This document shows positions 1,487 through 52,075 of a stretch of 64,000 bases of DNA, one piece after another. The DNA lies in the IMG/VR virus record IMGVR_UViG_3300031707_000010, positions 5,175-69,174 of that record; one strand, written 5' to 3'. This DNA comes from a virus. A program made the translations under genes and the position numbers. Positions within the stretch are counted from its first letter, which is position 1; each line of letters begins with the position of its first letter. Under the pieces are notes generated by a model that worked only from the letters and a program-made list of their open reading frames with translations, was not told where the DNA came from and searched no databases.

Positions 1487-1515
1487 AATATAACCATAAA
1501 TTTTTGTAGATGCAA
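1487..1515 (-). promoter_or_regulatory. sigma70-like promoter for the helicase
   Basis: TTGCAT-17 nt-TATATT on the minus strand. Confidence 0.6.
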
Positions 1516-1590
1516 GCAACCACTCTTTTATCCACGTCACTTTTTGGTATATTCAATTTACAACAAAACATGAAAGGATGCAACAATTCA

Positions 1591-34300: not shown

Positions 34301-36096
34301 TTAGCACCAATAACCGCTACAGTTAAAGTCTCAGTTATACTTTGAGAATCTTCTATAGCTAATTTATGAGCACCAACAACTCTTGAATCTAAAGTTTCTG
34401 TTATTGACTGAGAATCAAATATACTAACAAGTAATCCACCAATTCTAACTGCTAATGTTTCTGTTATTGATTGAGAATCAAATATCAAAAATTCTATTTC
34501 TGTTTCGAGATTTAAAGTTTCTGTTATTGATTGAGAATCAAATATATTAACAAGTAATCCACTAATTTTGCTTGTTAATGTTTCTGTTATAGATTCAGTA
34601 TCTTCAGCTAAACTTACTAGAGAAAGTGTAGCTCCAACAGTTTCTGTAATTGTAGTCGTATCATCTTTTGATGCAAGTACCGTACCAACTTTAAGAGTTA
34701 AAGTCTCGGTTATTGATATGGAATCTTCTACTAAAGAAACCACATTTCCAATTTTAACAGCTAAAGTCTCTGTTGTAGACTGTGTATCAAATATAGATAC
34801 TAAGCTAGTGCCAAACACTCCGACTATTAAAGTTTCTGTTACACTTTGAGTATCGTCTTTAGTAGCATAATTAGTACCAAATATACCAGCAGTTAAAGTT
34901 TCTGTTATACTCTGAGTATCATCTTTTATAGCATAGTTAGTACCAAATACTGCTCCACTTAAAGTCTCTGTAGTAGAACGAGTATCTTCAGCATTAGCTT
35001 TTAAAGCGCTTATTAATGCTGTTAATGTCTCTGTTACTGATTGAGTATCTTCAGAGTTACATTTTAGACTACTTATTAATCCAGTTAAAGTTTCTGTAGT
35101 AGAACGAGTATCTTCAGCATTAGCTTTTAAAGCGCTTATTAATGCTGTTAATGTCTCTGTTATTGTTTCTGTATCAAAAATTGAGATTAAGCTAGTACCA
35201 AATACACCAGCTATTAAAGTTTCTGTAATTGATTCTGTATCAGATATAGAAACTAGATTAGTACCAAATACTCCACCTGTTAAAGTCTCTGTAATAGAAC
35301 GAGTATCTTCAGTATTACATTTTAATCCACTTATTAATGCTGTTAAGGTTTCTGTAATAGATTGTGTATCTTCAGCATTGCATTTTAATCCACTAACTAA
35401 AGCTGTCAAAGTTTCTGTAATTGTACAGCTATCTTGAACAGAGGTTATTTTAAGAGCAGATATTAATGTTGTTAAAGTCTCAGTTATCGTACAAGTATCA
35501 GAAACTCCAGGAATTCTATTAGCACCAACAACTAAAGCTGATAAAGTTTCAGTTATAGTAGTCGTACTAGAAGCAGTTGAAGTCTTTAAAGCAGAAATTC
35601 TAGCAGTAAGTGTCTCTGTAATAGAGGTTGTACTCGCTGCAGTTGAAGTCTTTAAAGCTGTAATAACCGCAGTAGTAGTCTCTGTTATGGTACAAGTATC
35701 AGATACATTAGCTACTTTAAGAGCAGTTATAACAGCAGTAAGAGTCTCTGTTGCAGATAATGTATCAGAAACATTTAAAGGAACTAAAGGATTTACTTTA
35801 GGTGCTAAAGTTTCTGTTAAAGTACAAGTATCTGATATAGAAGTTATTTTAAGTTCAGAAATTCTACTTGTTAAAGTCTCTGTTATTGTCGTAGTGCTAG
35901 AAGCTGTTGAAGTTTTAAGTCCACTTATTGTAGCTGTAAGAGTCTCTGTTATAGTACAAGTATCTTCTGCTGTTACATTTATAGGAACTGGAGCTATATA
36001 ACCGGCAGCTATGATTGGAACAAACAACGGAGCATCGACCGCCGTAAAAACGTCGGATTTGATCTGCGGTGGGTTTCTTACATAGCCAGTTGCCAT
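31303..36096 (-). CDS. Giant Thr/Ser-rich 21-aa repeat fibre-like protein (1597 aa) with C-terminal beta-sandwich
   Basis: Roughly 70 repeats of S-I-F-D-T-[EQ]-S-I-T-E-T-L..., then ~115-aa non-repeat domain. Confidence 0.8.
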   Translation of the reverse strand: MATGYVRNPPQIKSDVFTAVDAPLFVPIIAAGYIAPVPINVTAEDTCTITETLTATISGLKTSTASSTTTITETLTSRISELKITSISDTCTLTETLAPKVNPLVPLNVSDTLSATETLTAVITALKVANVSDTCTITETTTAVITALKTSTAASTTSITETLTARISALKTSTASSTTTITETLSALVVGANRIPGVSDTCTITETLTTLISALKITSVQDSCTITETLTALVSGLKCNAEDTQSITETLTALISGLKCNTEDTRSITETLTGGVFGTNLVSISDTESITETLIAGVFGTSLISIFDTETITETLTALISALKANAEDTRSTTETLTGLISSLKCNSEDTQSVTETLTALISALKANAEDTRSTTETLSGAVFGTNYAIKDDTQSITETLTAGIFGTNYATKDDTQSVTETLIVGVFGTSLVSIFDTQSTTETLAVKIGNVVSLVEDSISITETLTLKVGTVLASKDDTTTITETVGATLSLVSLAEDTESITETLTSKISGLLVNIFDSQSITETLNLETEIEFLIFDSQSITETLAVRIGGLLVSIFDSQSITETLDSRVVGAHKLAIEDSQSITETLTVAVIGANVVSIFDTESITETLTSKIGGLLVSIFDSNTATEQFDIKIGTVLTSIFDTESASETLTLGESLPASLFDTDSIIETLTGKVSGILALTSDTENAIDEIQTASNVTVIVFDTETITEILTCLVVGANKANAEDIQSVTETLSSLVVGAHKPSIFDTESITETITAGVFGTNLVSIFDTESITETLLGDVSDLPAVAQDTINITENLYGDVGDCSVVIEDIQSITETISIKLSVNLSLFDSQSITETLLGDISDLPATTFDTESITETLFAGILINASTSETENISETLTVLISALKIAIEDSNTATETIVTKLSILPSIFDTQSITETLVGDISDLPISIFDTETITETVLGIVSLVKANAEDTQNVTETLSIVISAIKVGVEDIQSTTETLNAGTSGIYQVAEDTQSITETLALKLSISGVASDTESITENLYGDVGDCSVIIDDTVSVTETLQLKLSISAIASDTESITESLFGDVADIPILIEDSQSITETLIGKISGVLASTSDTESITETLIGFVSGANLASVSDTESIIETLLGKLSANLAITEDTQSVTETTVILSSVLGAITEDSQTITETLIELISGLKVSIFDTESITETLAGDIADLSIPIEDSISITETLVVRVVGSNLISIFDTENVVETLLTQVVGAHKPSIFDTETAIEEVITRVTGANKVSIEDVVSVNETIIIAMPLAGIVIFDTTTITETLNVQVVGNSLISIFETESITETLTSKISNLIVSIDDVISITETITSKVSGNNLVSIDDEQSIIETVALLIGGLKVSIEDVKVITETLSSKVEGNNVASIFDTVNITEILDNKISALKVAVEDSQSITETVASKVSNLSAIASDTITVEESFDENINPLQIFAGSDVDPQTWVPSIGVDLYACIDELEPPNDSDYIHSPENPSNSWCEVKLNGVIDPQVASGHQVKFRFQKSTNQGVMDFTVQLRQGVNVIAEKTINNVANTWTDDSFTLTPLQADSITDYSDLRLRFSATSS
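31730..35980. repeat. Coding tandem repeat, ~63-bp period
   Basis: Recurring aaagt(t/c)tctgt(a/t)at..attctgtatc; near-identical ~78-bp copies at ~34959 and ~35085 (126 bp apart). Confidence 0.85.
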
Positions 36097-37552: not shown

Positions 37553-38320
37553 TTAATAAACCCTACCATAATTGTCGATATGCCCACATTTTATTCCTGT
37601 ATCAACAATAAAAGGGTTCTTACGATTGGCTACTTTTTTATACCCAGTCTTATGAAGCCATCCTTCATTCATAACACGAGTACACCACCACAAATCTTCA
37701 GTTCCACCTTGAATTTCATAAGTTCCAGTTTTTTCATTGTAAGTAGCTGACCTAGGAGTATGAAATACCTTACGAACTTTATCATTTCCTACTTGTATCT
37801 CTTCACTCTTTTCCCACATGGCTTTCAAAAGCTTAACTGAAATAAGAGTACAACCCATACCAAGTCCATCACACCAAACAGAGTCTCCTTGTTTCCATTT
37901 ACGAAAACTTCCATTACCTCTACCTCTATACACTAATGGATCTGGTGGATTACCTTTAATATGATACAGGCCTCCAACAACCGGATACTCTTCTCTGTGC
38001 ATCCACTCATTCATACGAATAAAAGTATCCGGAGGAAGAATAACATCGTGGTCAATAAATAGCAACCAATCGAAATTATTCTTTACGATGAAATCTACAG
38101 CAAGATTTCTAGCATCATCTACTGCATAAGATAAAGGCGAAAATGTATCAATCCAACGAATCAATTCTGCATTAGACCAATTCGCTGGTATAACCTGCCC
38201 ATATCTCGCTAACATCCACTCTGCTCGAACCAACCCAGTAAGAGGAATAGACACACATACTTTTCTTTGAATGGGCTTTCCAGACGGTTTGAGGACATTA
38301 TATCTTTTAAGTGTTTTCAT
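37553..38320 (-). CDS. Glycosyltransferase family 2-like protein
   Basis: ARN, DWLLFIDHD, VVGGLY, DGLGMGCTLI, TEDLWWC, CGHID; paralogous to 29453..30178. Confidence 0.88.
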   Translation of the reverse strand: MKTLKRYNVLKPSGKPIQRKVCVSIPLTGLVRAEWMLARYGQVIPANWSNAELIRWIDTFSPLSYAVDDARNLAVDFIVKNNFDWLLFIDHDVILPPDTFIRMNEWMHREEYPVVGGLYHIKGNPPDPLVYRGRGNGSFRKWKQGDSVWCDGLGMGCTLISVKLLKAMWEKSEEIQVGNDKVRKVFHTPRSATYNEKTGTYEIQGGTEDLWWCTRVMNEGWLHKTGYKKVANRKNPFIVDTGIKCGHIDNYGRVY

Positions 38321-38484
38321 CTCCCCATCCCATCTTTTGTCTTTACATCTTCTGAAACTCCTGCATTAAGAATTTTAGGAGGTTCTTTAGATTTTTCAGC
38401 TTCTCCATAATGAAACTCACACAATTTAACGACTATAAAAGTATCGTTATCTACAGTACAACCGCATGGCATTCTTTCTTGCAT
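38317..38484 (-). CDS. Hypothetical 55-aa protein with CGC...CEFH motif
   Basis: Manual translation MQERMPCGCTVDND...KLCEFHYGE...; overlaps both neighbours (TAATG, ATGA). Confidence 0.55.
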   Translation of the reverse strand: MQERMPCGCTVDNDTFIVVKLCEFHYGEAEKSKEPPKILNAGVSEDVKTKDGMGR

Positions 38485-39050
38485 TAGCGCCTCCGCTTTT
38501 CAAGAATTACTTCCAAATTACCATCACCCTTCCATGTTACCATCTCAATCTTCCATGGCTGAGGTGCATAATAATCATAGAGTTTATTGTGAACACCGAT
38601 TTGTTTTACTTCATAGATACCAGTTTTCTTATTCTTAATTTCTTTCCAACCCATAGCTTCTGGCATTGGATCAAAATAAAAGAATGTTACTTCATTAAAA
38701 GGATTGCAATGCGTAGGGTCTTGAACATATTGTTCATTAACCCCATAAGGACAGCCAATTGCGAGCTGTCCTTCTGGCTTCAATATCCTCCAAATTTCGT
38801 TAAATACGTCTAAAGTGAGCCACGGCTTGATATGCTCAAGCACGTGGCTCGCCATGACCGTAGTAACGGAATTGCTTTCAAATGGATAAGGTATATCTTC
38901 AATGTCGTGAACAACATCAACGCCATCGAGTTTACGTTTATCCATCCCGATCCAATGCGGACCACTTTTACGATCGCCACATCCGATATCGAGAAGAAAT
39001 GGAGTCAATAATTTGGACTTGGATTTCTTTATTTTCTTAGTCACAATCAT
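38484..39050 (-). CDS. Class I SAM-dependent methyltransferase (type 11-like)
   Basis: LDIGCG, PYPFESNSV, SHVLEHI, EIWRILKPEG, QDPTH. Confidence 0.9.
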   Translation of the reverse strand: MIVTKKIKKSKSKLLTPFLLDIGCGDRKSGPHWIGMDKRKLDGVDVVHDIEDIPYPFESNSVTTVMASHVLEHIKPWLTLDVFNEIWRILKPEGQLAIGCPYGVNEQYVQDPTHCNPFNEVTFFYFDPMPEAMGWKEIKNKKTGIYEVKQIGVHNKLYDYYAPQPWKIEMVTWKGDGNLEVILEKRRR

Positions 39051-39565: not shown

Positions 39566-40270
39566 TTATTTAAATGCGTTTCCTACTAAAAACGCTACAG
39601 TTGCAATTCCAGCACCTATTACTCCAGGAATAACCCAATTACTTGATTCTTGAGAAGTAGTTGGTTTTAAATTAATAGAAAATTCTGCATTCTTTTCTAA
39701 TATGTAAGGATTCGAATGAAGAATAAATCCACTTAGCACAAGGTCTTTTTGTTCCATTACTCCTATTGTGGTAGAATCTGGAATAGTGATGGAATGAATA
39801 TACAGCTTTGCTGAGCTACTATCAGTTCTAGTTGTTCCACTAAAGGAGTAATACCTATGAGTCGTATCAAATTTAGCAAACATATAACCATCTTTAAATG
39901 TAATCTTTCCTAAGAGCTCTAGATTTTCTATCTTTAATTCACCAATTGTCTTAGTTAAGAATAAAATTCTACCATCTTTCTCTTTAATATACTTGCTTAA
40001 CTCTTTATTTGATTTTATCTGAGCATTTAAATCTTCTTCTATTTTAGCATAACGGACTGAGATAACTTGCACTTCACCAATCAAAACTCTACGTAGACTA
40101 TCCGTTTTTGCTAACTCATTTTGTAGTGTTACGTTGGTATTACGAAGTGAGTTGTTCTCCAACTTCAGACGTATGGTAAAAACCACTAGTGCTATGACCA
40201 GTAGTGACACAACAAACAATGGGATATTTTTAGTATTAAAGATATCAGTAAATTTCATGTTAATCCTCAA
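39566..40270 (-). CDS. Spanin-like membrane protein
   Basis: N-terminal TM, coiled coil, beta region, C-terminal hydrophobic tail; follows putative endolysin. Confidence 0.5.
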   Translation of the reverse strand: MRINMKFTDIFNTKNIPLFVVSLLVIALVVFTIRLKLENNSLRNTNVTLQNELAKTDSLRRVLIGEVQVISVRYAKIEEDLNAQIKSNKELSKYIKEKDGRILFLTKTIGELKIENLELLGKITFKDGYMFAKFDTTHRYYSFSGTTRTDSSSAKLYIHSITIPDSTTIGVMEQKDLVLSGFILHSNPYILEKNAEFSINLKPTTSQESSNWVIPGVIGAGIATVAFLVGNAFK

Positions 40271-40679
40271 CTTTTATATGGACACTTGAGGAATTAACAA
40301 AAGGTGCAACTTTATTATAGAAACTAAAATACGCCACTCTACTATCTTCTAAAGAAAATGAATCTACGTGGGCATGAACTCCCCAACCTACTAAGATACA
40401 GCCTGCTGTATCTCTATTGAAATTTCCAGGATGAAACAAGATATACTCAAATTCTGGTACATCCATTACCCATAACATATGATGCCCAAGTCTAGGAGTA
40501 AACTTTGGGCTATATCTTAATCCTACTTTATAGTATCCAGCAGGAATTCTTGTTTCACCTGGAATTTTAGGATATGAAGCTTTATCTTCAAGAGTAAAGA
40601 CATCAAACACAGAATCAATTGACATTAAGCCAATTGTATCTTTCGGTGCATGAATTACTCTTTTAAGACCAAGTTCCAT
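40260..40679 (-). CDS. DUF5675-like putative endolysin (L,D-peptidase fold)
   Basis: TIG, TLED, TRIPAGYY, VPEFEYILFHPGN...DTAGCILVG, SR.A. Confidence 0.85.
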   Translation of the reverse strand: MELGLKRVIHAPKDTIGLMSIDSVFDVFTLEDKASYPKIPGETRIPAGYYKVGLRYSPKFTPRLGHHMLWVMDVPEFEYILFHPGNFNRDTAGCILVGWGVHAHVDSFSLEDSRVAYFSFYNKVAPFVNSSSVHIKVED

Positions 40680-40745
40680 ATTTTCCTCAATTGTTGGGGG
40701 CTAGAGAATCCTAGCCCCCTCGTCCACAGATAGCTCTAGGAGGCG

Positions 40746-41099
40746 TTAGGCTACTGGGGGCGGAGTCGGTGGCGTCTTTGCCATAGGCGGACGCAATTTT
40801 AAAAGCTCTAAAAGATATTGGACAAATGGAGTTGTAAACGACCAATTCGCCATTAATGCGGCTCCTAGTCCAATAACAGGCCCTGAGATGTAATCTGGTT
40901 GTGCGCCAATTACAGTAGGATCAGCAAACATTCCTAAATCTAAATATGCTCCTAAAGTTCCTACGAGTGCGCCAATAACAAGGGAACGAGCTTGTGATGC
41001 AACGCCTTCTAAGTCCCAAAATTTATCTACAAATTCGCTAAGAGCCAAAACTGCAGAAATCAAAACTGCGATGTTTACAAAAATTTCGTTCATGTTCAT
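40746..41099 (-). CDS. Putative holin
   Basis: 117 aa, three hydrophobic segments, directly upstream of endolysin; RBS GGAGG. Confidence 0.6.
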   Translation of the reverse strand: MNMNEIFVNIAVLISAVLALSEFVDKFWDLEGVASQARSLVIGALVGTLGAYLDLGMFADPTVIGAQPDYISGPVIGLGAALMANWSFTTPFVQYLLELLKLRPPMAKTPPTPPPVA

Positions 41100-41237: not shown

Positions 41238-41669
41238 TTAAACTACATGCTCAACCCAAACGAATCCAAAGTTTTCAACTGGACGAACTTGTGCAGCATT
41301 GTTCACCGTGAATCCAATTTTATTGCAATTATCCACAGTGCCATTATCGCCAGTTGTGCGAATCCAAGCAGACCCAGATTTTCCAAGCTGAGCATCCGTA
41401 AAAGTAACAAAGGTTTCAATTGCAGAACTCGGTAAATCTGATCCAACAACTTCTCCTTCACCCACAAACTGATAAACCAGATTGTGTTTTTCTACAAAAG
41501 AATCTGGTGAAGGAGTCCATGTAGCTTTAAATTTTTCCATATTTCCCTCTATGTGATTGAATGTGAAATTGCTAACAGCGTTAACTGGTTTTCTTCGCAT
41601 TATACAATAGAAAAATAACACAATAAGTGCGAAGCAAAGTAAGGCGATAATAGAAAAAAGAGTTACCAT
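41238..41669 (-). CDS. Membrane-anchored Fn3-like protein; possible internal start at 41540
   Basis: N-terminal TM, then ATWTPSPD, HNLVY, WIRTTGDNG (Fn3-like); internal AGAGGG-AAAT-ATG. Confidence 0.55.
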   Translation of the reverse strand: MVTLFSIIALLCFALIVLFFYCIMRRKPVNAVSNFTFNHIEGNMEKFKATWTPSPDSFVEKHNLVYQFVGEGEVVGSDLPSSAIETFVTFTDAQLGKSGSAWIRTTGDNGTVDNCNKIGFTVNNAAQVRPVENFGFVWVEHVV

Positions 41670-42427
41670 GTGGATACATCTCCTACAACAGCCCTATTAA
41701 GTGAATCATTTGGCATTTGATAAAGCTTCATTTTAAACACAGCTCGTTGGTCCCAACCTCTATTTTTTGTAGGATCTCCAAGAATTTTTTCCATTCTAAT
41801 GTGAACATACCAATCGTAAGGCTTACCTTTAAAACTATCGCTCCACTCCTCTACAGGTGTTGGCCCTGCAGAATAGATATACCACCCATGACCGTTCTGG
41901 TCTAATACCTTACGAGCGTAAGTAAGCCAACGAGAAATTTTTACAGTAGAATCTCGAGTACGCCCAAGAGTGTCGTATAAATTAGGAGCTGACCCTCCTC
42001 CTAAGCCTAAGCTATCTGGAACAAAAACTCCTCGTTTTTCTACTATCCAAATCCAACTTGAATCATCGCAAGTTTTTCTAGCCCATGAAAATAATGCTTT
42101 ACGTTGGTCTCCACGTCCAGTAACAGAATCAAAAGAGAAGTGATAATCTATAGAATAAGTTATCCAAGCAGAATCTTTACCACCGCAGGTTGTTGCACTC
42201 CACAATCTTTCATCGGGAGCTTTCCACCAAAATCCTTGTTTAATATAACAGAAGATTGTTGTTTCTCGTGCGGCTTCTTCACATAGATTAAAATACATAA
42301 ACGCAGCTCGTTTTTGACTCCAATATAAGGAATCCCCTTTTAAATTTACCCATACTTTTGGTTGAGAAAGAACTGTAGAAGTGAACAACAACAGAAGAAG
42401 TCCGGCGCGCTTCATTTGACGCCTCAT
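41663..42427 (-). CDS. Exported protein, aromatic-rich (possible glycan-binding/hydrolase fold)
   Basis: Signal peptide MKRAGLLLLLFTSTVLS-Q; many W/Y; seven D(S/T)(A/L/V/T) sequons. Confidence 0.6.
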   Translation of the reverse strand: MRRQMKRAGLLLLLFTSTVLSQPKVWVNLKGDSLYWSQKRAAFMYFNLCEEAARETTIFCYIKQGFWWKAPDERLWSATTCGGKDSAWITYSIDYHFSFDSVTGRGDQRKALFSWARKTCDDSSWIWIVEKRGVFVPDSLGLGGGSAPNLYDTLGRTRDSTVKISRWLTYARKVLDQNGHGWYIYSAGPTPVEEWSDSFKGKPYDWYVHIRMEKILGDPTKNRGWDQRAVFKMKLYQMPNDSLNRAVVGDVSTW

Positions 42428-43005
42428 GGTTTCGGAATTGACCCTGGAAATAAATGTTCAAATCCTTTGCTGACCCAACCCATTGGATCTACTTGTTGTA
42501 ATCCCAAAGAATGTAATACAGATAAAAACATAAAACCGCCTACAAGAATTAAAATAAGTTTTCCAGTTTTGCTAGTTATAAATTTACCTGTCTTAGTTTC
42601 TTTTTTGTAAGTATTCCAAGCATCTTCTGCACGTACGGTTGCTCGTACAGAAGTAGTTAATCTTTGAATTTCTATTTGGCCCTCTGATAGTTTAGCTAAA
42701 CTGCTCATTATAGCAGTATGCTCATTGGCGTTTTGTTTAGTGAGGGTGTCTACACTATTAATTAGATTCATATGGCCCTCCTTATAATCTTTTTTAAATT
42801 TAGCTAAATCTGCAATATCTTCTCTTAATTCTCTTTCAATCTCTAAAATCTTACCCCCAAATTTTTGCTCACTGAGCATCATCTTTTCATCTACACGACT
42901 TAACACTTGATCCGTAAGCTTATGAATCTCTGTTAATACTTCTGCTAAGTCTACTAAATGAACGACTTCTACAGGGGTCTTAATTGCGGCCGATTTAGGA
43001 GTCAT
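42424..43005 (-). CDS. Coiled-coil protein with C-terminal TM helix
   Basis: Heptads then LILILVGGFMFLSVLHSLG. Confidence 0.6.
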   Translation of the reverse strand: MTPKSAAIKTPVEVVHLVDLAEVLTEIHKLTDQVLSRVDEKMMLSEQKFGGKILEIERELREDIADLAKFKKDYKEGHMNLINSVDTLTKQNANEHTAIMSSLAKLSEGQIEIQRLTTSVRATVRAEDAWNTYKKETKTGKFITSKTGKLILILVGGFMFLSVLHSLGLQQVDPMGWVSKGFEHLFPGSIPKP

Positions 43006-43385
43006 GTTTTTCTTTCTTTAAATGAGAACCAAATTAGGAATATTCCTATAACCCAACTACCGATTTCAAGATACCAAAAGTCTGGCCACCAATTATACCC
43101 TGGTTTAATATGAATGAAACTATCAAGGTATAGATGTATTGCATAAGCTGGATGCCAATAAAAAGTATTGACCAGATCTCCAGTGTGCATCCTTGTATAA
43201 TATTCCCATCTTGTAGCTCCAAAAAATGTTGCTGCAACCCAATCAAATATGTCTGGCCAAATGCCGCCAATAAAACCAAAAATAGATGCTATTAAGACTG
43301 CCTGTTTTCTCCAAATCTTTGGCATCCATCTCCAAGGTAATGCACAAAATCCAGCACCTAAAACTCCATGAGCTAGAAATGTCAT
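43002..43385 (-). CDS. Membrane-bound metal-dependent hydrolase-like (YdjM-like) protein
   Basis: N-terminal AHG, G..PDIFD, RMH, HLYLD..H motifs within TM helices. Confidence 0.6.
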   Translation of the reverse strand: MTFLAHGVLGAGFCALPWRWMPKIWRKQAVLIASIFGFIGGIWPDIFDWVAATFFGATRWEYYTRMHTGDLVNTFYWHPAYAIHLYLDSFIHIKPGYNWWPDFWYLEIGSWVIGIFLIWFSFKERKT

Positions 43386-43711
43386 GTTCCTGTCTCCACT
43401 AATTTTAGCTGCAATTCTTTATGTCGATTTTTATAATATCTATTAATTCTTCTTTTCTCTAATACTTCTACCCACCAAGCTGCGTCGCAGACTCTACATT
43501 TTCTAAATTTATTTCCTACAATTCTATTACACTTAGGACATAATACTGTTATCTTTGGAACTAATACTTCGTTACTATGAAGAGCAGCAAACAATGCTTC
43601 ATGAAGAATTTGTACTTCTTGTTTTAATTGAAGACAATACTTTATTAAGTCTTTTCGAGACATTTCTTCCCAAATTACAAAAGGCTTATCTTCAAATTTA
43701 AATTTGTTCAT
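43382..43711 (-). CDS. Hypothetical zinc-ribbon protein
   Basis: CPKC...CRVC. Confidence 0.6.
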   Translation of the reverse strand: MNKFKFEDKPFVIWEEMSRKDLIKYCLQLKQEVQILHEALFAALHSNEVLVPKITVLCPKCNRIVGNKFRKCRVCDAAWWVEVLEKRRINRYYKNRHKELQLKLVETGT

Positions 43712-44400
43712 GGATTTGGCTTTACGCTAGCGGTACAAATTGACCAGTCTTCTGAATTCCATTTACTCCAACTCATAGTAACTGAAGACGCCCCAGATTC
43801 CTGAGACGAACCAAATGCCAATTCTCCAGTTCTAGAACTCCAATAGTATCCAGATTGTCCAGATCCTACTGTAAAACCTCCTCCATCGTATGTCGCACAA
43901 GCATCAATTACAATTTCTCCTTCAGCACTCGTTTGATCTCTAGTTGCAGTTGTTGAAGTTCCTTCAGCTTCTCCACTATAACTAAATGGAGTGCTTTGAT
44001 CTACTTCATTCCAGCTTGTAGCTAATGCTCTAAAATCGCTAGTTGAAGAACTCAAAGTAACGACAATATCATGTGTTCCATCATCTGGGAGTAACAAATA
44101 CCAAATTGCAGATCTAAATCCACCTTTATCTCTATCTACAAGTTCTGTTAAAGCATCTCCATTATAAGCTATAGATGTAACAGTTCTATAAGCTACTCCT
44201 AAACATACTGTAAGCATTCCATTATCAGTAGCACAAGTGTGACTCCACGTAGTTGCAGAACTTTGTGTAGTATCGTCAACTCCGAATTCTCCAGATGGCC
44301 CTCCCCCTGAACCTTTAAAAGGAAGGATGAAAATATCTTGTGCTTTTATGGGTGCAATCCATAATAGCATTAAGGCAATGTACGCGTACCTATTATCCAT
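43708..44400 (-). CDS. Exported beta-sandwich protein resembling phage fibre-tip domains
   Basis: Signal peptide ..YIALMLLWIAPIKA-Q; WSHT, VTSIAYNG.ALT, IWYL..P..GTH.IVVT, VDQSTP. Confidence 0.65.
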   Translation of the reverse strand: MDNRYAYIALMLLWIAPIKAQDIFILPFKGSGGGPSGEFGVDDTTQSSATTWSHTCATDNGMLTVCLGVAYRTVTSIAYNGDALTELVDRDKGGFRSAIWYLLLPDDGTHDIVVTLSSSTSDFRALATSWNEVDQSTPFSYSGEAEGTSTTATRDQTSAEGEIVIDACATYDGGGFTVGSGQSGYYWSSRTGELAFGSSQESGASSVTMSWSKWNSEDWSICTASVKPNP

Positions 44401-47291
44401 ACTTTTAATCCTGCTCCAGCTATCGTTGACCCTATTTGATCTACAAAAATTTTAATTTCTGAATCATCCGCTAATGAAGCATCTGTAATTGTTGCTTGTG
44501 TAGAATTTGGATATGAAGATTTAGCTGATACATCAATTTGACATTTTGTTCCTAAAATAGTCGTTCCAGATTCATGAATATCTACATGAAGAGAAGACCC
44601 CGTCGGAGCTGTTGTAACACTTGCTCTTATGCCAGTAACTGTCATGGCATAAGGCATTCTAAAAGTCATCTTTTCTACAGAAGTTGAAGCAGTTAACGCA
44701 GTTGTTTCATCTGAACACGCAATTCCTATAACAGTAGGATAAGAAGCTTTACTTACAAAATTAGAACTGACCCATCCTTGAGTTGCTCCTCCAGTTGTTC
44801 CAACTGCTTGTCTTAATTCAAATCCAGTAAAAGTCGTTCCATTTCTTATAAATAAAAACGATGAGGATTCTCCATTAGTAGGTTGTGGTGCAGTAGATAA
44901 TCCAGACCAAGTTATTCCCGTAGGCCAAGTAACTGTTTTATTATTTGGATTATAAAGAGTTAAAATATTATCTCTTCTTTTTGAATTACTCATTAAAATT
45001 CTAGTATTAGCAGTTAAAGTATCCACAGTAATTGTATTATTCCAATCTAAATATACTGTATCTGAAGTAACTGCGTATGATAATGTTCCAAAAAGAAAGT
45101 CTTGTGAAAAATTGCTGTATCCTGCAGAATTTCCAGCTGCAATTCCCCATGCTAAATTTAAATTTTCTGGAAGATTAGTAACATTAACAAAAGTATCAGG
45201 AAAATCTTCTCTAAGTAAATATGTAGTTGTCCAATTTATTGTTCCATAATTAAACTTATACTTTGTAGCTCCTGTAACTTTTCTCCATTTAAAAGTATAA
45301 TCCGGAGGAATTAGCCACGCATTTGCTGTAGGTTGAACAATTTGTGTAGGTATATCAGGAATTGTTTCTCCAGGACCTCCACCGTCTGTAATTATTCCTA
45401 TTGGAGCTCCAATATCTCTCCACTGTTTTCCACCACTGAAAAAATAAATCCTATCATTTGTAGCAGTTGTTATAGATTTATTAAAGGTTACAGTTCCAGC
45501 GTGGTGATCTATAGAACTAATTCTAACTATATCTACAGTAGAGGCATGAACAATAAGTAAACTATCTCCATATAACGTAAATCCTGCTCCCCATACAGTT
45601 CCTACTGTATAATCATCTCTAAATAACCAAGTATCTACTCCAAGAGTTTGAGTAGCACTTGTAGTTCCAGTAACAATCTGCGATAGAGCGACTGCTTTTC
45701 CTTTAGCAGCGCTTGTAGGTTTAGGTCTAAAATCATAACTTCCTACCCAAGCAGTTGGATATACTGGAGCATTCTCAAATCCCGGATCTGCCCAAATGCT
45801 TGAATCTTCTCCCCCTTTACATATCGTTCCAGTAACAAAAGAGACATGGTTTGTCATTCCTAAGTTTGTATCTGGAGAATCTCCAATATCTTGAAATTTA
45901 CCGCCGTAAGCCATAGAGTCTGGATAATCCCAATAAAGATTTCCATTTACATGATAAGCAGGAGTTCCAGTTCCAGTACCCCCACTTGTATTATAATTTG
46001 GCTTCAATCTCATAAGGGCTCCTGCCCCACTCCCTGTTCCTCCATTATTAGGCATTCCAACAACTATATTATTTAACACCCATCCACAATACCCTCCAGT
46101 TGTTCCTGCATCCATGTTATAAGCACCTGAAGATTTTTGAGTAGTGTTCCATCTTCTTCTATTATTCGCAAAAGTATTGTGATAGGCCATAAAACTACCA
46201 GAATAATCCATCCCATCTCCATTAGAATACAACACATTATTTCGATAAATCATAAAATGTTCCATTCTTGAAGGAGTTCCACGACAAAAAGCAGCTCCAG
46301 TTCCATAGTGAGAATCTGAAATTCCAACTACTGTTTGATCTCCATCGTCATCATTCTTAGTACCCCAAACAGTACATCCTTCAACCATAGACCGCCAAGC
46401 ACCCTTAGGATCGAAAGCATTTTCTCCTGCATTTTTAAGAATACTATTTCTAACAAGAATTTGAGCTGAAGAATCTGCATAATCGCTATTAATTTGGATG
46501 TTATCTTCTTCCCAAGATGTATCCATATAACACTGTTCTATTAAATGTCCTGTATAACCTACGCCTGCTCCTCCAGAATAAGTTAATACAAAATTACTTT
46601 CTCCTTGATTAGTAATTGTATCTCGATAAAGTGTTGAATGATCTGCTGCTCCTCCATCTATAGCTATTCCAATACCTGGAGTTCTAAAAACTTTTGTATT
46701 CATAACCGTAGTATGTGAACCGCCTATTACAATTCCACGATCTTTATAATAATGGATCCAATAATCGTGAGCTACATCTGTAGATCCAGAACTCACCCAA
46801 CAACGATCCATAATTCCATAATCTCCTGCCATCTGTACATAATAGGTAGCAGCTGTTGCTTTTGTATAATCATTACACATAAAACCTAATCTATATAATT
46901 TTACATAATCTCCTGTAACAACAGCTACATTCCTTTGATTTTGCCAACGCCAATCATCGTCAGTATCATAATATGTTCCATTCAAATATCCTACAATTAC
47001 TGGATAACTTGTGTCTGTAGCAGCCATATAAACAAGCATTGCTCCAGAAGTTCCATTTCTAGATTGATAAAGATCTTCGTTGTAAGTTCCACCGTACATT
47101 TTAATAGTATCAATTCCACCTGCCCCTAATTCTGCATTTGCTTTATGTAAAGTCCACGCATCTGTTTTACTAGTTCCACCATTGCTAGATGAACCATCTG
47201 GAGCAACATATTTAATTGTTCCAGAATAAATTAAAGTTGGAAATAGAATTAATAAAACTAAATATCTTAATTTTAAGGTAATTGTATCCAT
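44370..47291 (-). CDS. Exported right-handed beta-helix (pectate-lyase/depolymerase-like) protein with Fn3-like and phage fibre-type C-terminal domains
   Basis: Signal-like LKLRYLVLLILFPTLIYS-G, YVAPDG..NGGT...AW, GGTY, RNNVLY/HNTFANN/NNIVV repeats, ADPGF, C-terminal ACSDETTALT..FRMPY..GLKV; ATG 47291 preferred over 47336. Confidence 0.75.
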   Translation of the reverse strand: MDTITLKLRYLVLLILFPTLIYSGTIKYVAPDGSSSNGGTSKTDAWTLHKANAELGAGGIDTIKMYGGTYNEDLYQSRNGTSGAMLVYMAATDTSYPVIVGYLNGTYYDTDDDWRWQNQRNVAVVTGDYVKLYRLGFMCNDYTKATAATYYVQMAGDYGIMDRCWVSSGSTDVAHDYWIHYYKDRGIVIGGSHTTVMNTKVFRTPGIGIAIDGGAADHSTLYRDTITNQGESNFVLTYSGGAGVGYTGHLIEQCYMDTSWEEDNIQINSDYADSSAQILVRNSILKNAGENAFDPKGAWRSMVEGCTVWGTKNDDDGDQTVVGISDSHYGTGAAFCRGTPSRMEHFMIYRNNVLYSNGDGMDYSGSFMAYHNTFANNRRRWNTTQKSSGAYNMDAGTTGGYCGWVLNNIVVGMPNNGGTGSGAGALMRLKPNYNTSGGTGTGTPAYHVNGNLYWDYPDSMAYGGKFQDIGDSPDTNLGMTNHVSFVTGTICKGGEDSSIWADPGFENAPVYPTAWVGSYDFRPKPTSAAKGKAVALSQIVTGTTSATQTLGVDTWLFRDDYTVGTVWGAGFTLYGDSLLIVHASTVDIVRISSIDHHAGTVTFNKSITTATNDRIYFFSGGKQWRDIGAPIGIITDGGGPGETIPDIPTQIVQPTANAWLIPPDYTFKWRKVTGATKYKFNYGTINWTTTYLLREDFPDTFVNVTNLPENLNLAWGIAAGNSAGYSNFSQDFLFGTLSYAVTSDTVYLDWNNTITVDTLTANTRILMSNSKRRDNILTLYNPNNKTVTWPTGITWSGLSTAPQPTNGESSSFLFIRNGTTFTGFELRQAVGTTGGATQGWVSSNFVSKASYPTVIGIACSDETTALTASTSVEKMTFRMPYAMTVTGIRASVTTAPTGSSLHVDIHESGTTILGTKCQIDVSAKSSYPNSTQATITDASLADDSEIKIFVDQIGSTIAGAGLKVWIIGTRTLP

Positions 47292-50245
47292 GTGTCCGCC
47301 ACTCGTTGGTACATGAAGAGTTTTGTTGAATGCCAATAAAAGTCACCGTTGTTTCCACCTGTTGGATCTGTTGACCCATAAGTATAGCTCGTTTTTCCAT
47401 TCAATTGCGTTTGAATAGCACTTGTAACTCCATCTACAAAATTAAGTTCTGCTCCTGTTGGTAAAACAGATACAGCTCCAAGAGTAAAAGGAGTTGGAAT
47501 AGTAACAGTCCCCGTAAAAGTGGGGGAGCTTTTGGGAGCGTATATTAATGTGCTATAATTTCTTATACTAGTGCTATCTGCATTTTTAAGATATAAGATA
47601 TTGCTATAATTTCTTATACTAGTGCTATCTGCATTTTTAAGATATAAGATATTGCTATAATTTCTTATACTAGTGCTATCTGCATTTTTAAGAACTGCTG
47701 TTAAAAATGCTTTAGCTGCTAACGAAGTACCAAGTCCAGCTGTATCGCTAGCTACCCATCCTGGAATAGTACCATTACTTCCTAAGCGTTGACCGATAGT
47801 GCCTACTGTCAATCTAGTAAAATATCCAGATGAGTTTCTATAAAATATATCTCCCGTCGCATCAGATGTTAAAGTAAAAGTTGGAGTGCCTGTAAAAACA
47901 GGCGACGTAAACATTGTTGCTTTACTTTCATTAGTAACATTCTGTAAAGCTAAAGCAGTTTTAACCGCTGAAGCATCTGACGATGCCCAAGCTCCTCCAA
48001 CAGAAAGAATCATGTTGCCAGTTGTAGGAGTTAATCCAGCAATTGTTGTTAAGTCTGCGTCTAAAGGTTGTTTTCCTGATAATGATGTACCTAAACCTGC
48101 CGTATCGCTAGCTGCCCAAGTTGGAATAGTACCATTACTTCTAATATGATAGCCAGTTGTTCCAAGTCCAAGACGAGTAAAATAACCTGAAGAGTTTCTA
48201 TAAAACATATCTCCTGTAGCATCACTTGTAAGCGTGAATGTTGGCGATCCTGTAAAAGTGGGGCTCGTGAACATTGTTGATTTAGATTCATTTGTGACAT
48301 TCTGTAAAGCTAATGCAGTTTTAACAGTTGCTGGATTAGCAGAACTCCATGCCGAGCTTGCTGCTAAAATCATATTATTATCTGTAGGCGTCAATCCTGC
48401 TAGTGTCGTTAAATCTGAATCTAAAGGCTGTTTACCTGCTAGTCCTAATATTACTCTAGCAATAGTAGCTAATCCAGTTGCTGCCGTTGATGTATCAGCA
48501 CTTAAAGTAATAGCACCCGATGTTGCACCCCCAGTTATCGGCGTATTTGTACTTACAGAAGTTATATCCCCATAATTCATAGCATTAATATCTGCCCACG
48601 TAGGCAACCACGTAGTAGTATCTGTAGCAAGAACATAATTACCTGATGCTTGTTTACCTGCAAGTCCAAGTGTTACTCTTGCTATTGTAGCTAAGCCTGT
48701 AGCTGCTGTAGAAGTATCTGCACTTAATGTTATTGCTCCAGACATCGCTCCACCTGTTATGGGGGTATTAGTGCTAACTGATGTAATATCCCCATAATTC
48801 ATGGCATTTATATCAGACCATGTAGGAAGCCAAGTAGTTGTATCTCCTTTAGCAGGATACAAAAAATTACTATAAGTTCTAATATATCCACTATCAGCTG
48901 GAACTAAATATACACCACTGGCTTGTTTCCCCGCTAATCCTAATGTAACTCTTGCTATTGTTGCAAGTCCAGTTGCTGCTGTGCTTGTATCAGCACCAAT
49001 GGTTACGCCACCACTCGACCCTCCACCTGTTATGGGGGTAGTTACACTCACCCCAGTTATGTCACCATAATTCATTGCGTTGATGTCTGACCAGGTGGGT
49101 ACCCAAGTTGCTGTATCTGCTTTTGCTATGTATAAAGCATTACTTTGATTTCTAAGAGATGTTGAATCAGCATTTTTAAGAAATGTATTATTTGACCAAT
49201 AACGAGTGGCATAAACTGAGGAATCCGGAGTTGCAATTGTGATAAGATATTTTGTGTAAGCTAAAAAAGTAGCTGAATCTTGTTTTGATATTAAATCTGA
49301 TAAAAGTTTAGTTCTATAAATATCTCTAAAAATCATATTACTTGCTGCATCTAAAGTTATCCAAACTGTATCTTGAGCCGTACCTTCCCAAAGTCCAATT
49401 TTTCTAAATTGCTGGTCTCCCCATAAAAATAAATCTTGTGTATGATCGAAAGCTGAACTAGCTAAACTTCTTGCGTATGCGCGAGTAGCAGCTGAATCTG
49501 TATTTCCCATTCGTAGTGTACCACTAACCTTCAATACTCCATTAACATACATGCTATCTTTAACATAAGTAAATCCTGGATTTACAGAAAAAGTTTCTAT
49601 TGAATTAATTGTAGCAGTTAAAGGTTTTCCACTTGTTGTTGAAAAAGCTCCTGCGGTTCCACTAACAGAAGCTGCCCAAATGCCATATCCAGCACCTTGA
49701 TTAGTACCAACTAACGCCATAGAAGTAGCAGAAGACGATGCAGAATTTAATGTAGCTGCTACCCCCATAGATAATGCTGCTGTTGATGGATTATATACTT
49801 CAATTGACGCCTCTCCACCTGAATTTGCTACATTAAAAATTTGCTTAGCATACCAAGTTTTTGTAAGATTTTTTTGAGCTACGTTTGTATCAACACCAAT
49901 TCGTATTTGATTAGAAACTGAACTATCTATTAAAATTCCCGTATTTGCTGTAAGAGTTTTAAACCATAATGTAGTATCTGTCTTATTCTTGTAGATTTTA
50001 AATCCAGTTCCTACGTTTCCTCCTGTACCAACACTTCCACTACCTCCAGTTGGAGCCGCCCATGCTGCACTTCCATTAATCTGCTTTGTTAATACGTAGC
50101 CTGTAGAACCTCCAAGCAGAATTAAGCTCTTATTGAAATAAGTGCTTTCAGCAAATTCTACAGGGGTTCTAAACTTTTGATTTTGAGCAACAAGAAGGGC
50201 TGGTATTAAAAGCAGTAAGAAAAGAATTAATAGCAGTCTTTTCAT
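47273..50245 (-). CDS. Exported fibre-like repeat protein (990 aa)
   Basis: Signal peptide MKRLLLILFLLLLIPALLVA-Q; fibre-type motifs KQPLDADLT.IAGL, LQNVTNESKATMF, SPTFTG, VDGVTSAIQTQLNGK, DPTGGNNGDFYW. Confidence 0.8.
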   Translation of the reverse strand: MKRLLLILFLLLLIPALLVAQNQKFRTPVEFAESTYFNKSLILLGGSTGYVLTKQINGSAAWAAPTGGSGSVGTGGNVGTGFKIYKNKTDTTLWFKTLTANTGILIDSSVSNQIRIGVDTNVAQKNLTKTWYAKQIFNVANSGGEASIEVYNPSTAALSMGVAATLNSASSSATSMALVGTNQGAGYGIWAASVSGTAGAFSTTSGKPLTATINSIETFSVNPGFTYVKDSMYVNGVLKVSGTLRMGNTDSAATRAYARSLASSAFDHTQDLFLWGDQQFRKIGLWEGTAQDTVWITLDAASNMIFRDIYRTKLLSDLISKQDSATFLAYTKYLITIATPDSSVYATRYWSNNTFLKNADSTSLRNQSNALYIAKADTATWVPTWSDINAMNYGDITGVSVTTPITGGGSSGGVTIGADTSTAATGLATIARVTLGLAGKQASGVYLVPADSGYIRTYSNFLYPAKGDTTTWLPTWSDINAMNYGDITSVSTNTPITGGAMSGAITLSADTSTAATGLATIARVTLGLAGKQASGNYVLATDTTTWLPTWADINAMNYGDITSVSTNTPITGGATSGAITLSADTSTAATGLATIARVILGLAGKQPLDSDLTTLAGLTPTDNNMILAASSAWSSANPATVKTALALQNVTNESKSTMFTSPTFTGSPTFTLTSDATGDMFYRNSSGYFTRLGLGTTGYHIRSNGTIPTWAASDTAGLGTSLSGKQPLDADLTTIAGLTPTTGNMILSVGGAWASSDASAVKTALALQNVTNESKATMFTSPVFTGTPTFTLTSDATGDIFYRNSSGYFTRLTVGTIGQRLGSNGTIPGWVASDTAGLGTSLAAKAFLTAVLKNADSTSIRNYSNILYLKNADSTSIRNYSNILYLKNADSTSIRNYSTLIYAPKSSPTFTGTVTIPTPFTLGAVSVLPTGAELNFVDGVTSAIQTQLNGKTSYTYGSTDPTGGNNGDFYWHSTKLFMYQRVADTWIQLP
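47551..47692. repeat. Perfect 51-bp coding tandem repeat (~2.8 copies; LKNADSTSIRNYSNILY)
   Basis: tgctataatttcttatactagtgctatctgcatttttaagatataagatat starting at 47551, 47602, 47653. Confidence 0.95.
47720..49110. repeat. Internal module duplications in the 990-aa protein
   Basis: Three copies of TW.PTW.DINAMNYGDIT...ADTSTAATGLATIARV.LGLAGKQ and two copies of KQPLD.DLTT...LQNVTNESK...SDTAGLGTSL. Confidence 0.85.
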
Positions 50246-50847
50246 ATTAGTACGATCATTATGTCACAATAGTAATGCGACATTTCTGGCCCGTTTGGAT
50301 CCAATGAAACATTAAATAATAAATTTCCACCAACAACCTGTATAGATGCTTGTGTAAGTTTTACTGCTCGATAAACATAGATATTATTAATAATAGATGA
50401 TGGCTCAAAAATAAAAACTGCTGGAAGATTTGAAGATGAAAATTTTGGCCACGTTTGTCCACCATCTGGAGTTGTCAATTTTCCTGAACCTGTAGTAAGA
50501 ACTTCAAATTCACCTACTGCAAGTTCTCCAATATCTACCCCTCTCTTAATGTATATTGACTTACTTGCTGGAACCTCAAATCCTGATGCGCCAGAGAAAT
50601 CGTCCTGCTTATTCGTATTAATGTAAAGGTCATATCTTACATTCTGATTTGTAATGTCTGCATACCATTGTCCAGGATTATTAACAGATTGCGTCAATAC
50701 TACAGAATATGAATCAGCAGTTTTTGTAGAAGGGTTAGCAGAATTTAAATCTGGTTGAGGTTGCAAGAATGCTGAAGTAATACCACTCTGAGGTTTTAAT
50801 GTACCATCTAATGCGTGCTCCACTAAGAATATTGAAAACCTTGGCAT
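50242..50847 (-). CDS. Hypothetical virion-associated protein
   Basis: 201 aa, RBS GGAGG, first gene after major capsid; no signal peptide. Confidence 0.7.
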   Translation of the reverse strand: MPRFSIFLVEHALDGTLKPQSGITSAFLQPQPDLNSANPSTKTADSYSVVLTQSVNNPGQWYADITNQNVRYDLYINTNKQDDFSGASGFEVPASKSIYIKRGVDIGELAVGEFEVLTTGSGKLTTPDGGQTWPKFSSSNLPAVFIFEPSSIINNIYVYRAVKLTQASIQVVGGNLLFNVSLDPNGPEMSHYYCDIMIVLI

Positions 50848-50911: not shown

Positions 50912-52075
50912 TTACGCCGTAATCCGTACGCCGTAACGATAATCCCTATGGCCAACGCCGCCATAGTAATTGAACCGCGCCTTCCACACAATACGACGAC
51001 GGAAAGCATCATCATCAGACGCTGCAGCAGTAACTGTGCTAGGACGCTCAACCCAAAGCCACAGTAACGACCGCTTGAAATCTCCCATATACATAACATT
51101 GGTCGTATCTGAAACAAAAGGCGACACAACCGTAGCCAACGAAACACGACCACGTGGCCCAAACTGGTTGACATCGTTAAAAGCATTGCCAACACTGCGT
51201 TCAGTAGCAAACAGTGTAGCAATCGTCAATTCATCCGAAGAGTGAACAATAACCTGAGTCGGACGAACAACAATCTGCTTTCCACGTTCATCAACCATAG
51301 CCGCAAATGCCAACCACGCATTCGTAAGACCAGTAGCTGTAATCCCACCTGCGACTTCATTCTTATTAACCTGCATATCAAGAATGGTAGCATGTGTACT
51401 TGCATAGAACTGAGCCTGCGTATAAGCTGTGCCATTATAAACAAACGCCCTTGAAGTAGCTTCCTGGAAAGCAGTACGCGGAAGATTTTCAAGGGTTTCC
51501 ATAATCATCAGTTCCTGATGCTGTCCAGCATCTTCACCGATTGTACGCGCACGTGCCTGTATATCACCTGTCCGGTCATTGAAAATGTCTTCCATCGTAA
51601 GAGAAATGATACGACCAAAGTCACTCTTACGAATCGACACTTTCTTCTCACCGAAATCCGTTTCGTCGTAGGCTTCAGTTTCTAACCTACGCCGAATACC
51701 ACCAATTGCTGTCATTCCACGCACTGTCTCGTCGTCCGTCATTGTAGCATCGCCCTCTGTGCAGAGAGCCATGACTTCATTCATACGGACTTCATAAGGA
51801 GCAATAACGATAGAATGTGTAAGCATGGTTGTGATAGTAGGAAATGCTGACGAAGAAACTGCTTCAGCAACTTCCATAGCATTGCTAGAATCGATATTAT
51901 TCATATCGACCAAACCCTCAAAAAGTGCTTTGTAACTCACATTCTGAGGATCCAATGTCTTTTCAGCAACCATCTTTTTAAACGCCTCTGCCACCAGTCT
52001 GTTGGTCTTATTTACATCTCCACCACATTGCTGGGAGCAGGCTTCACGAAGTTCACGAATTGCACCGATTCTCAT
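50912..52075 (-). CDS. Major capsid protein (Mu gpT-like, HK97 fold)
   Basis: EAVSSSAFP, E.E.Y....GE, FGRIISLT.E.I.ND.TG.I..A..IG..A, V.PTQVIV; follows protease and cement genes. Confidence 0.88.
   Translation of the reverse strand: MRIGAIRELREACSQQCGGDVNKTNRLVAEAFKKMVAEKTLDPQNVSYKALFEGLVDMNNIDSSNAMEVAEAVSSSAFPTITTMLTHSIVIAPYEVRMNEVMALCTEGDATMTDDETVRGMTAIGGIRRRLETEAYDETDFGEKKVSIRKSDFGRIISLTMEDIFNDRTGDIQARARTIGEDAGQHQELMIMETLENLPRTAFQEATSRAFVYNGTAYTQAQFYASTHATILDMQVNKNEVAGGITATGLTNAWLAFAAMVDERGKQIVVRPTQVIVHSSDELTIATLFATERSVGNAFNDVNQFGPRGRVSLATVVSPFVSDTTNVMYMGDFKRSLLWLWVERPSTVTAAASDDDAFRRRIVWKARFNYYGGVGHRDYRYGVRITA

Follow-up and report, generated by a model that had tools for sequence, protein, structure and literature searches.

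Tailed phages, in the textbook account, complete their morphogenesis wholly in the cytoplasm. What, then, are we to make of a late gene region in which fibre-like proteins begin with what appear to be Sec signal peptides? This question is raised by a 64,000-nucleotide stretch of DNA (hereafter, the window), comprising bases 5175-69174 of one 69,174-base virus contig (IMG/VR record IMGVR_UViG_3300031707_000010). Three consecutive genes lying shortly after the major capsid gene, coding for proteins of 990, 973 and 230 amino acids (aa), and a fourth one further along, coding for a 254-aa protein, all carry such leaders (Table 1). We consider it very probable that the four products are exported, given their canonical leaders, the glutamine found at the first position after the predicted cut (+1), the conservation of leaders in homologues and an enrichment of glycosylation sequons that is seen in leader-bearing proteins only. 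Three of the four, judging from their sequences, are built from tail-fibre, tailspike and minor-tail parts, and these probably mature in the periplasm.

The leaders were split into n-, h- and c-regions by a heuristic of our own, which also weighs positions -3 and -1, and not by SignalP. The initial annotation had placed n/h/c signal peptides at the starts of these four genes, and both the open reading frames (ORFs) and the heuristic bear this out. With a slash for the predicted cut, the N-termini read MKR-LLLILFLLLLIPALLVA/QNQ in the 990-aa protein, MDTITLKLRY-LVLLILFPTLI-YS/GTI in the 973-aa protein (counted from its ATG; the ORF opens at a TTG, 47336), MDNRY-AYIALMLLWIAPI-KA/QDI in the 230-aa protein and MRRQMKR-AGLLLLLFTSTVLS/QPK in the 254-aa protein. 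All four show the n/h/c build with small residues at -3 and -1 and score 3.6-7.6; the n-region of the 230-aa protein has a net charge of zero. Scores of at least 3.5 were obtained for 10 of the 61 contig ORFs of at least 75 aa, namely the four genes, membrane proteins of holin-like or anchor type and a single doubtful case. Glutamine occupies the predicted +1 position in three of these ten (the 990-, 230- and 254-aa proteins), while the 973-aa protein has glycine there. No in-frame methionine follows shortly past any of the four leaders. Glutamine at +1, the so-called Q-rule, is described as specific to Bacteroidetes (PMC5837995).

The expectation that such leaders persist in homologues held for three of the families and failed for the fourth. 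A word-index search returned four homologues of the 990-aa protein, all with a leader and three with glutamine at the predicted +1. Five homologues of the 973-aa protein were returned; leaders are present in all three that align along its enzyme part (P0005, P0006 and P0007; glutamine comes next in one) and absent from the two that have only the C-terminal domain in common with it. An exhaustive HMMER search yielded 35 representatives of the 254-aa family, 26 of them with a leader, the remaining nine having shorter or cut N-termini. Glutamine is found at the predicted +1 in 18 of the 26 and 3-7 residues beyond it in the other eight, in which the heuristic probably misplaced the cut site. None of the 12 homologues of the 230-aa protein has a leader, and their starts coincide with the start of the conserved domain; therefore, the leader and a linker of about 20 residues were added in this lineage. 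The AlphaFold model of the 230-aa protein (predicted local distance difference test, pLDDT, 80) is consistent with an added N-terminus, its residues 1-33 scoring below 50 and the rest being confident. Overall, conservation in homologues suggests that the leaders are more than chance.

A new line of evidence, absent from the initial annotation, comes from the enrichment of host glycosylation sequons. Bacteroidota are reported to O-glycosylate exported proteins at D(S/T)(A/I/L/V/M/T) (PMC8550257), and we compared counts of this sequon with those in composition shuffles (500 for the window proteins). The 990-aa protein holds 14 sequons against 5.7 expected and the 254-aa protein seven against 0.9, numbers that 0 of 500 shuffles attained for either protein; the four leader-bearing proteins of the window together hold 29 against 13.2. 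The excess extends to 990-family homologues (50 against 14.8), to the 26 proteins of the 254-aa family (178 against 25, an observed-to-expected ratio, O/E, of about 7, with p<=0.05 individually for 26/26 members) and to the leader-bearing proteins of the related contigs L004, L007 and L008 (43 against 18.1), it being understood that family members are related and hence not independent. Leader-less sets hold about as many sequons as expected: 32 against 32.5 in 16 leader-less homologues and 36 against 37.3 in the other proteins of L004, L007 and L008, with no enrichment in 15 leader-less proteins of the phage itself. Five control motifs (E or N in first place, reversed, permuted or with a wrong third residue) gave O/E values of 0.56-1.78. 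In the alignment of the 254-aa family, 72 of the 145 sequons fall in four conserved columns and the other 73 are scattered over 34 columns, 30 of which are used by three sequences at most. Such a spread looks like selection for sequon number and not for one structural motif. We regard the sequons, enriched only in leader-bearing sets, as predicted O-glycosylation sites.

The recurrence of a leader followed by glutamine in several families points to a Bacteroidota host, because the Q-rule is reported to be specific to that phylum, and the same pattern taken together with the sequon excess would make a marker of a Bacteroidota host that can be read from sequence alone. Two other approaches to the host were uninformative: matches to a Bacteroidetes-type promoter consensus numbered three against 3.07 expected, and homologues of the DUF5675 hydrolase encoded in the window occur in phages of many hosts and give no host signal.

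As regards destination, the initial annotation envisaged the periplasm or the cell surface. The first half of this proposal fits the support for export, while the second is unlikely. No C-terminal sorting domain of the type IX secretion system, of either type A or type B, was found in the four proteins with NCBIfam (E<=0.05) or Pfam, and there is no lipobox, the +1 residues being Q, G, Q and Q with no cysteine among them. The default location would thus be the periplasm until lysis. It should be added that the label of an export module, used in the initial annotation, does not fit, since the genes encode substrates of export and not an export machine.

The make-up of the proteins bears on what they do once exported. 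The 973-aa protein is, by sequence comparison, a chimera of a leader, a beta-helix domain of the secreted bacterial type and a phage tail-fibre C-terminal domain (aa ~854-970). The beta-helix, which the initial annotation had already named, is deduced from homologues: P0007 has weak Beta_helix, NosD and Pel9A-like matches, below the curated cut-offs, as well as a weak GH123 match; P0005 carries a precomputed PF22842 that gave no match on rescanning; and Pfam returned nothing for the 973-aa protein itself at E<=0.01. Over its last ~115 residues, the 973-aa protein matches protein C-termini in nine phage records at 31-60% identity (hosts: Synechococcus, Microcystis, Planktothrix, Sphingomonas, Polaromonas and a Rhodobacteraceae host); in three of these records the protein is annotated as a tail fibre or virion structural protein. 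Both C-terminal-domain fibres that were translated come from cultured phages and lack a signal peptide: Synechococcus phage S-CRM01 gp023 and Rhodobacteraceae phage LS06-2018-MD05 gp87. Annotated as tail fibre or virion structural protein, they are 56-60% identical to the 973-aa protein over aa ~854-970. Neither has a beta-helix part, and neither phage infects Bacteroidota.

The front part of the 973-aa protein leads elsewhere. Leader-bearing relatives (865-1404 aa) with 26-30% identity across ~600-740 residues were found at 12 further metagenome loci and six genome loci, mostly on high-GC contigs. The genome loci belong to four Bacteroidota/Bacteroidetes metagenome-assembled genomes (MAGs), one Ignavibacteriota and one Polyangiaceae (Myxococcota), and a GH123-like gene adjoins the relative in the four that have flanking genes (three Bacteroidota/Bacteroidetes MAGs and the Ignavibacteriota MAG). 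At L025 3088-13095 (Ignavibacteriota MAG) and L027 3141-12571 (Bacteroidetes MAG), two paralogous leader-bearing beta-helix proteins flank the GH123-like gene and are followed by a FadL-like outer-membrane gene; both appear to be chromosomal loci for glycan breakdown, akin to the front part of the 973-aa protein.

The 990-aa protein consists of fibre repeats and three 17-aa units (NADSTSIRNYS..) with one sequon each; the motifs KQPLDADLT, LQNVTNESK and DGVTSAIQTQL, singled out in the initial annotation, all lie within it, as SDETTALT..FRMPY does within the 973-aa protein. Its motif at aa 667-728 is also present in three leader-less IMG/VR tail fibres. Over aa 41-180 the sole match was phrog_35416, a family without an assigned function, and no anchor domain was recognised; the search for relatives gave short motif matches only. 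Among the homologues, P0002 joins repeats of the 990 type to a C-terminal domain of the 973 type; thus, the parts of the two proteins are shuffled as modules. P0001, from another contig, is 98% identical to the 990-aa protein and 17 residues shorter, with two 17-residue units (sequon DST) in place of three, and unit copy number therefore varies between near-identical phages. The 230-aa protein comprises the leader, the ~20-aa linker and an all-beta domain of the 'minor tail protein' fold, with a PHROG match to phrog_2106. Its model had 70 matches at E<=0.001 among the predicted viral structures of BFVD (template-modelling scores of 0.6-0.77), a good number of which bear the name minor tail protein and come from Mycobacterium and Gordonia phages, and 0 matches at E<=0.001 in the PDB. 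The C-terminal domain of the 973-aa protein, the shared motif of the 990-aa protein and the fold of the 230-aa protein thus support the fibre-type build claimed for the three.

The 254-aa protein, which had been placed under the same fibre-like heading, is a different matter: it is not fibre-like. Its model is confident and all-beta (pLDDT 83), the family is unnamed, and 0 matches were obtained in the PDB at E<=0.001. Searches of genome contigs with the family, and of the phage collection with the protein, gave no close relatives. A family represented in the window by a 143-aa protein adjoins the 254-aa family here (41238-42427), in L004 (7979-9066) and in L006 (9487-10684), and not in L005; two of the three phages with this neighbourhood are contigs of about 180-200 kb. 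The 143-aa neighbours were matched with E values of 7e-21 in L006, where a transmembrane (TM) segment is present, and 2e-29 in L004, where there is none. We conclude that the 254-aa protein and its 143-aa neighbour form a separate conserved secreted module.

Gene order places all of these genes in a phage late region. The contig, as its genes indicate, comes from a siphovirus-like phage without a close cultured relative. Among 50,697 phage records, the best matches to the capsid protein reach 28-31% identity and cover part of its length, and an IMG/VR search with the capsid protein, the 973-aa protein and homologue P0004 returned no close relatives. The GC content of the window is 31-44%, and from 10 kb onward nearly every gene lies on the minus strand. 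In the order of transcription, the portal, 475-aa, decoration-like, capsid and 201-aa genes are followed by the 990-, 973- and 230-aa genes and the 109-, 127- and 193-aa genes. Then come the 254- and 143-aa genes, the lysis cassette, a long methyl- and glycosyltransferase stretch with two huge repeat proteins, and the neck and tail genes, which include one for a 1514-aa tape-measure-like protein. The ATG of the 990-aa gene overlaps the stop of the 201-aa gene (ATGA), and therefore the leader-bearing genes belong to the late operon. Pfam, PHROG and NCBIfam scans matched no family for the 201-aa protein, and Atlas searches with it and with the 254-aa protein gave nothing usable; these scans lend no support to the idea, put forward in the initial annotation, of the 201-aa protein as a capsid-side dock. 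Homologues of the DUF5675 hydrolase are annotated as L,D-carboxypeptidase or peptidoglycan hydrolase.

Table 1. Leader-bearing genes and neighbouring late genes of the window (window coordinates; a slash marks the predicted cut).
Feature	Position	Strand	Remarks
990-aa fibre-like protein	47273..50245	minus	signal peptide aa 1-20 (nt 50186-50245), predicted cut LVA/Q; heuristic 7.6
973-aa chimera (predicted)	44370..47291	minus	signal peptide aa 1-23 (nt 47223-47291), predicted cut YS/G
230-aa protein	43708..44400	minus	signal peptide aa 1-20 (nt 44341-44400), predicted cut KA/Q
254-aa secreted all-beta protein	41663..42427	minus	signal peptide aa 1-21 (nt 42365-42427), predicted cut VLS/QPK
Portal			first in transcription order of late region; weak Phage_portal_2 and PHROG portal matches
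475-aa protein			after portal in transcription order
Decoration-like protein			between 475-aa gene and major capsid gene; sub-threshold match
Major capsid protein	50912..52075	minus	Phage_capsid_4, E 3.9e-14
201-aa protein without leader	50242..50847	minus	between capsid gene and 990-aa gene
109-aa (Cys-rich, no TM), 127-aa (membrane) and 193-aa (C-terminal TM) genes	42424..43711	minus	between 230- and 254-aa genes
143-aa protein, N-terminal TM segment (TM 2-20)	41238..41669	minus	conserved neighbour of 254-aa family
Lysis cassette: holin-like 117-aa (2 TM), DUF5675 peptidoglycan hydrolase (139 aa), 234-aa (N- and C-terminal TM)	39566..41099	minus	TM scan; DUF5675 E 6.5e-27

Similar arrangements occur in related phage contigs. 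In L004 (IMG/VR, 16 kb), inspection by eye picks out leaders in six genes, with glutamine coming next in five, and the six include genes for a beta-helix protein and for a member of the 254-aa family, the latter followed by a leader-less gene of the 143-aa family. The metagenome contigs L007 and L008 encode leader-bearing beta-helix proteins 51% and 49% identical to the 973-aa protein, respectively; their genes come after large or tail-fibre-like leader-less genes and before a gene with a leader and glutamine. In L007, the product of the gene that follows the 973 homologue has a leader and a QDI(F/M)IL start like that of the 230-aa protein (35% identity over 55 residues), and a DUF5675 hydrolase gene comes next after the leader-and-glutamine gene. 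Beyond the beta-helix cassette, this hydrolase is the only L007 protein that matches the window.

Whether exported proteins of this kind join the virion or remodel the infected cell was left as an alternative by the initial annotation, and the one experimental hint that they travel with particles comes from Cellulophaga phage phi18:3 (NC_021794), a cultured Bacteroidota phage of a different family (Pachyviridae). Its RefSeq record annotates 12 proteins, structural or tail, 'by experimental MS/MS proteomics' (tandem mass spectrometry, MS/MS). A leader followed by glutamine is present in three of the 12 (gp085, gp086 and gp087) and absent from the other nine. As with the 990-, 973- and 230-aa proteins, three consecutive large proteins here begin with a leader; in gp085-087 glutamine follows each leader, and the genes lie just upstream of those for small membrane proteins and an endolysin. 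Joining of the virion is thus indirectly supported, and action in the envelope or as free proteins is a live rival.

The best explanation, in our opinion, includes attachment to virions at lysis, which is favoured by the three phi18:3 proteins; we lean towards it slightly, at a level of confidence somewhat short of even. The four late genes, which run in the same direction as the capsid gene, would be translated into pre-proteins with leaders cleavable by signal peptidase I of the Sec pathway. The pre-proteins would cross the inner membrane unfolded, be cut and receive a pyroglutamate cap, then fold in the periplasm, where the 990- and 254-aa proteins in particular would be O-glycosylated by the general system of the host. 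There they would wait until the holin, the DUF5675 hydrolase and the two-TM protein of the lysis cassette opened the envelope. In the weakest step of this scenario, the 990-aa protein as a fibre, the 973-aa protein as a beta-helix enzyme ending in a tail-fibre tip domain and the 230-aa protein with its minor-tail fold would bind cytoplasm-assembled particles as side or accessory fibres. The outcome would be glycan-protected, pyroglutamate-capped appendages.

Several points weigh against this scenario. The leaders were called by our own heuristic, and their cleavage, the pyroglutamate caps and the glycans are predictions. Particles assemble in the cytoplasm, so attachment would be confined to a brief period at or after lysis. 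The mature 973-aa protein begins directly with its enzyme domain, like its free bacterial homologues, and no N-terminal virion anchor was recognised in it; similarly, the three leader-less fibres that have the aa 667-728 motif in common with the 990-aa protein open with a conserved adaptor-like N-terminus that the latter lacks. Further large proteins of the phage, of 1732, 1597, 849 and 372 aa, have no leader and are candidates for recognising the host. Sequons are not enriched in the 973-aa protein (seven against 5.3 expected) or in the 230-aa protein (one against 1.4), and the excess in the 990-aa protein lies largely in internal repeats, its 14 sequons amounting to about eight independent kinds. 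As to phi18:3, gp085-087 have no detectable similarity to the window proteins and no sequon excess (one against about three expected in each), and MS/MS of virion preparations could pick up co-purifying proteins. Finally, the fibre gp22 of PhicrAss001 is reported to dock by its residues 1-26 (PMC10172136), and so it would not be leader-cut.

The strongest alternative is that the proteins are exported yet never enter the virion, acting instead in the envelope of the infected cell or free after lysis; we see in it an appreciable possibility, if not a probable one. The 973-aa protein would be a soluble glycan depolymerase with a binding module, and the 990- and 230-aa proteins would act as soluble binding proteins, masking or stripping receptors or capsule, with the effect that progeny are protected from debris, superinfection is blocked or neighbouring cells are opened. 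The 27-30% identity of the beta-helix, over ~600-700 aa, to leader-bearing chromosomal proteins with GH123-like neighbours speaks for such a role, as do the lack of an anchor domain at the mature N-terminus of the 973-aa protein, the adjoining cluster of membrane and lysis genes and the leader-less fibre candidates that the phage already owns. Precedents exist as well: the bacterial WceF is an exported tailspike-like enzyme (PMC7949094), and authors working on Porphyromonas gingivalis phages interpreted the Q-rule genes found there as ones that may modify the outer membrane (PMC10367356). However, a repeat fibre of 990 aa and a minor-tail fold would be odd as free proteins, the genes sit in a late structural operon whose first leader-bearing member overlaps the gene after the capsid gene, the L007 and L008 homologues occupy a tail-fibre slot, and the leader-bearing proteins of phi18:3 are annotated as found in virions.

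It is improbable, in our estimation, that there is no export at all and that the hydrophobic N-termini are uncleaved anchors, assembly helices or mis-called starts of ordinary cytoplasmic virion parts. One may point to the calling of the leaders by a simple heuristic, to the long h-region of the 990-aa protein (17 residues), to the normally leader-less family of the 230-aa protein and to the 143-aa family, in which a TM segment is present in some members and missing in L004, so that N-terminal hydrophobic extensions evidently vary. Against this stand the recurrence of glutamine at +1 and of small residues at -3 and -1 over families and contigs, a sequon excess confined to leader-bearing sets, homologues that begin at the same leader and the lack of an in-frame methionine shortly past any of the four leaders. 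Least probable is the capture of host genes with little role for the phage, the 973-aa protein being a recently acquired secreted glycanase and the other leaders being carried by recombination: chromosomal homologues exist in bacteria of the Fibrobacterota-Chlorobiota-Bacteroidota (FCB) group, and the 973 cassette is 51% identical in L007, where otherwise only the DUF5675 hydrolase matches the window, but the enzyme forms a fusion with a phage fibre domain, a leader has been added to a phage-only fold in the 230-aa protein, arrays of such genes are kept by several unrelated phages, and the reading frames are all long and intact.

It is tempting to suppose, with rather more doubt than confidence, that a second assembly line operates in the periplasm for tailed phages of Bacteroidota, in which fibre, tailspike and lectin appendages are exported by Sec, capped, glycosylated and added when the holin breaches the membrane. 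Leaders would then have been grafted onto an otherwise cytoplasmic fold (the 230-aa protein) and a host-type secreted glycanase would have been joined to a fibre tip (the 973-aa protein); the docking site could be offered by the leader-less Ser/Thr-rich 1597- and 849-aa proteins or by the 201-aa protein. Maturation of host-recognition parts in the periplasm would imply a late, post-holin step of assembly. The appendages would bear host-made glycans and pyroglutamate caps, which would bear on stability, immune recognition and host range, and annotation pipelines should then not count a signal peptide against a virion role in Bacteroidota phages. Attachment at lysis is directly testable in the cultured phage phi18:3.

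How does this compare with known systems? Coat proteins of filamentous phages depend on Sec, and lysis proteins (Sec or signal-arrest-release endolysins and spanins) are exported; filamentous phages, however, are put together at the membrane, with no capsid in the cytoplasm, and lysis proteins are not fibre-type virion parts. We found no description of Sec leaders on tailed-phage fibres in the limited literature collection that was searched. Phage targets of diversity-generating retroelements are reported to be without the signal peptides of their bacterial counterparts, which is the opposite norm (PMC6199706). P. gingivalis phages carry five Q-rule genes without an assigned function; as in the window, predicted cleavage exposes glutamine, which was read as use of the general secretion of the host, but fibre or tailspike parts are not mentioned for the five genes in the available portion of that report (PMC10367356). 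WceF of Pantoea stewartii, an exported trimeric tailspike-like beta-helix glycanase, indicates that the fold works outside the cytoplasm; it differs from the window proteins in being bacterial, in having a Tat leader (exported folded) and not a Sec one, and in lacking a fibre tip domain (PMC7949094).

Some further features of the contig deserve mention. Among the clustered membrane proteins encoded upstream of the lysis genes, the 127-aa one (43002-43385, minus) has a weak match to zinc-dependent phospholipase C (Zn_dep_PLPC; 18.6 bits against a cut-off of 26.8). The giant 1597- and 849-aa proteins (31303-36096 and 26907-29456, minus) are paralogous and made of ~20-residue Ser/Thr-rich units (..D[ST]xSITETLT..), with 33-42% identity in many registers; a glycosyltransferase gene (29453-30253) lies between them, and contig L004 encodes an analogous 626-aa repeat protein. 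A sugar-modification set occupies 1510-6821 on the plus strand (a methyltransferase, two or three family-2 glycosyltransferases, a NAD-dependent epimerase/dehydratase and a DUF5672 protein), and two further glycosyltransferase-like genes and a methyltransferase lie within the late region (37553-39050 and 29453-30253, minus); the TM scan found no TM segment in any of these products. Just upstream of the tape-measure-like gene, adjacent 150- and 308-aa genes (21266-22641, minus) have their N-terminal ~75 residues in common (33% identity), a layout that resembles a tail assembly chaperone pair. ARAGORN found no tRNA within the window; a tRNA-Met (CAT) lies outside it, at contig bases 192-266, adjoining replication genes. 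At the switch of gene orientation, a 91-aa ORF (9794-10069, plus) has a strong N-terminal hydrophobic segment, with a heuristic score of 7.15.

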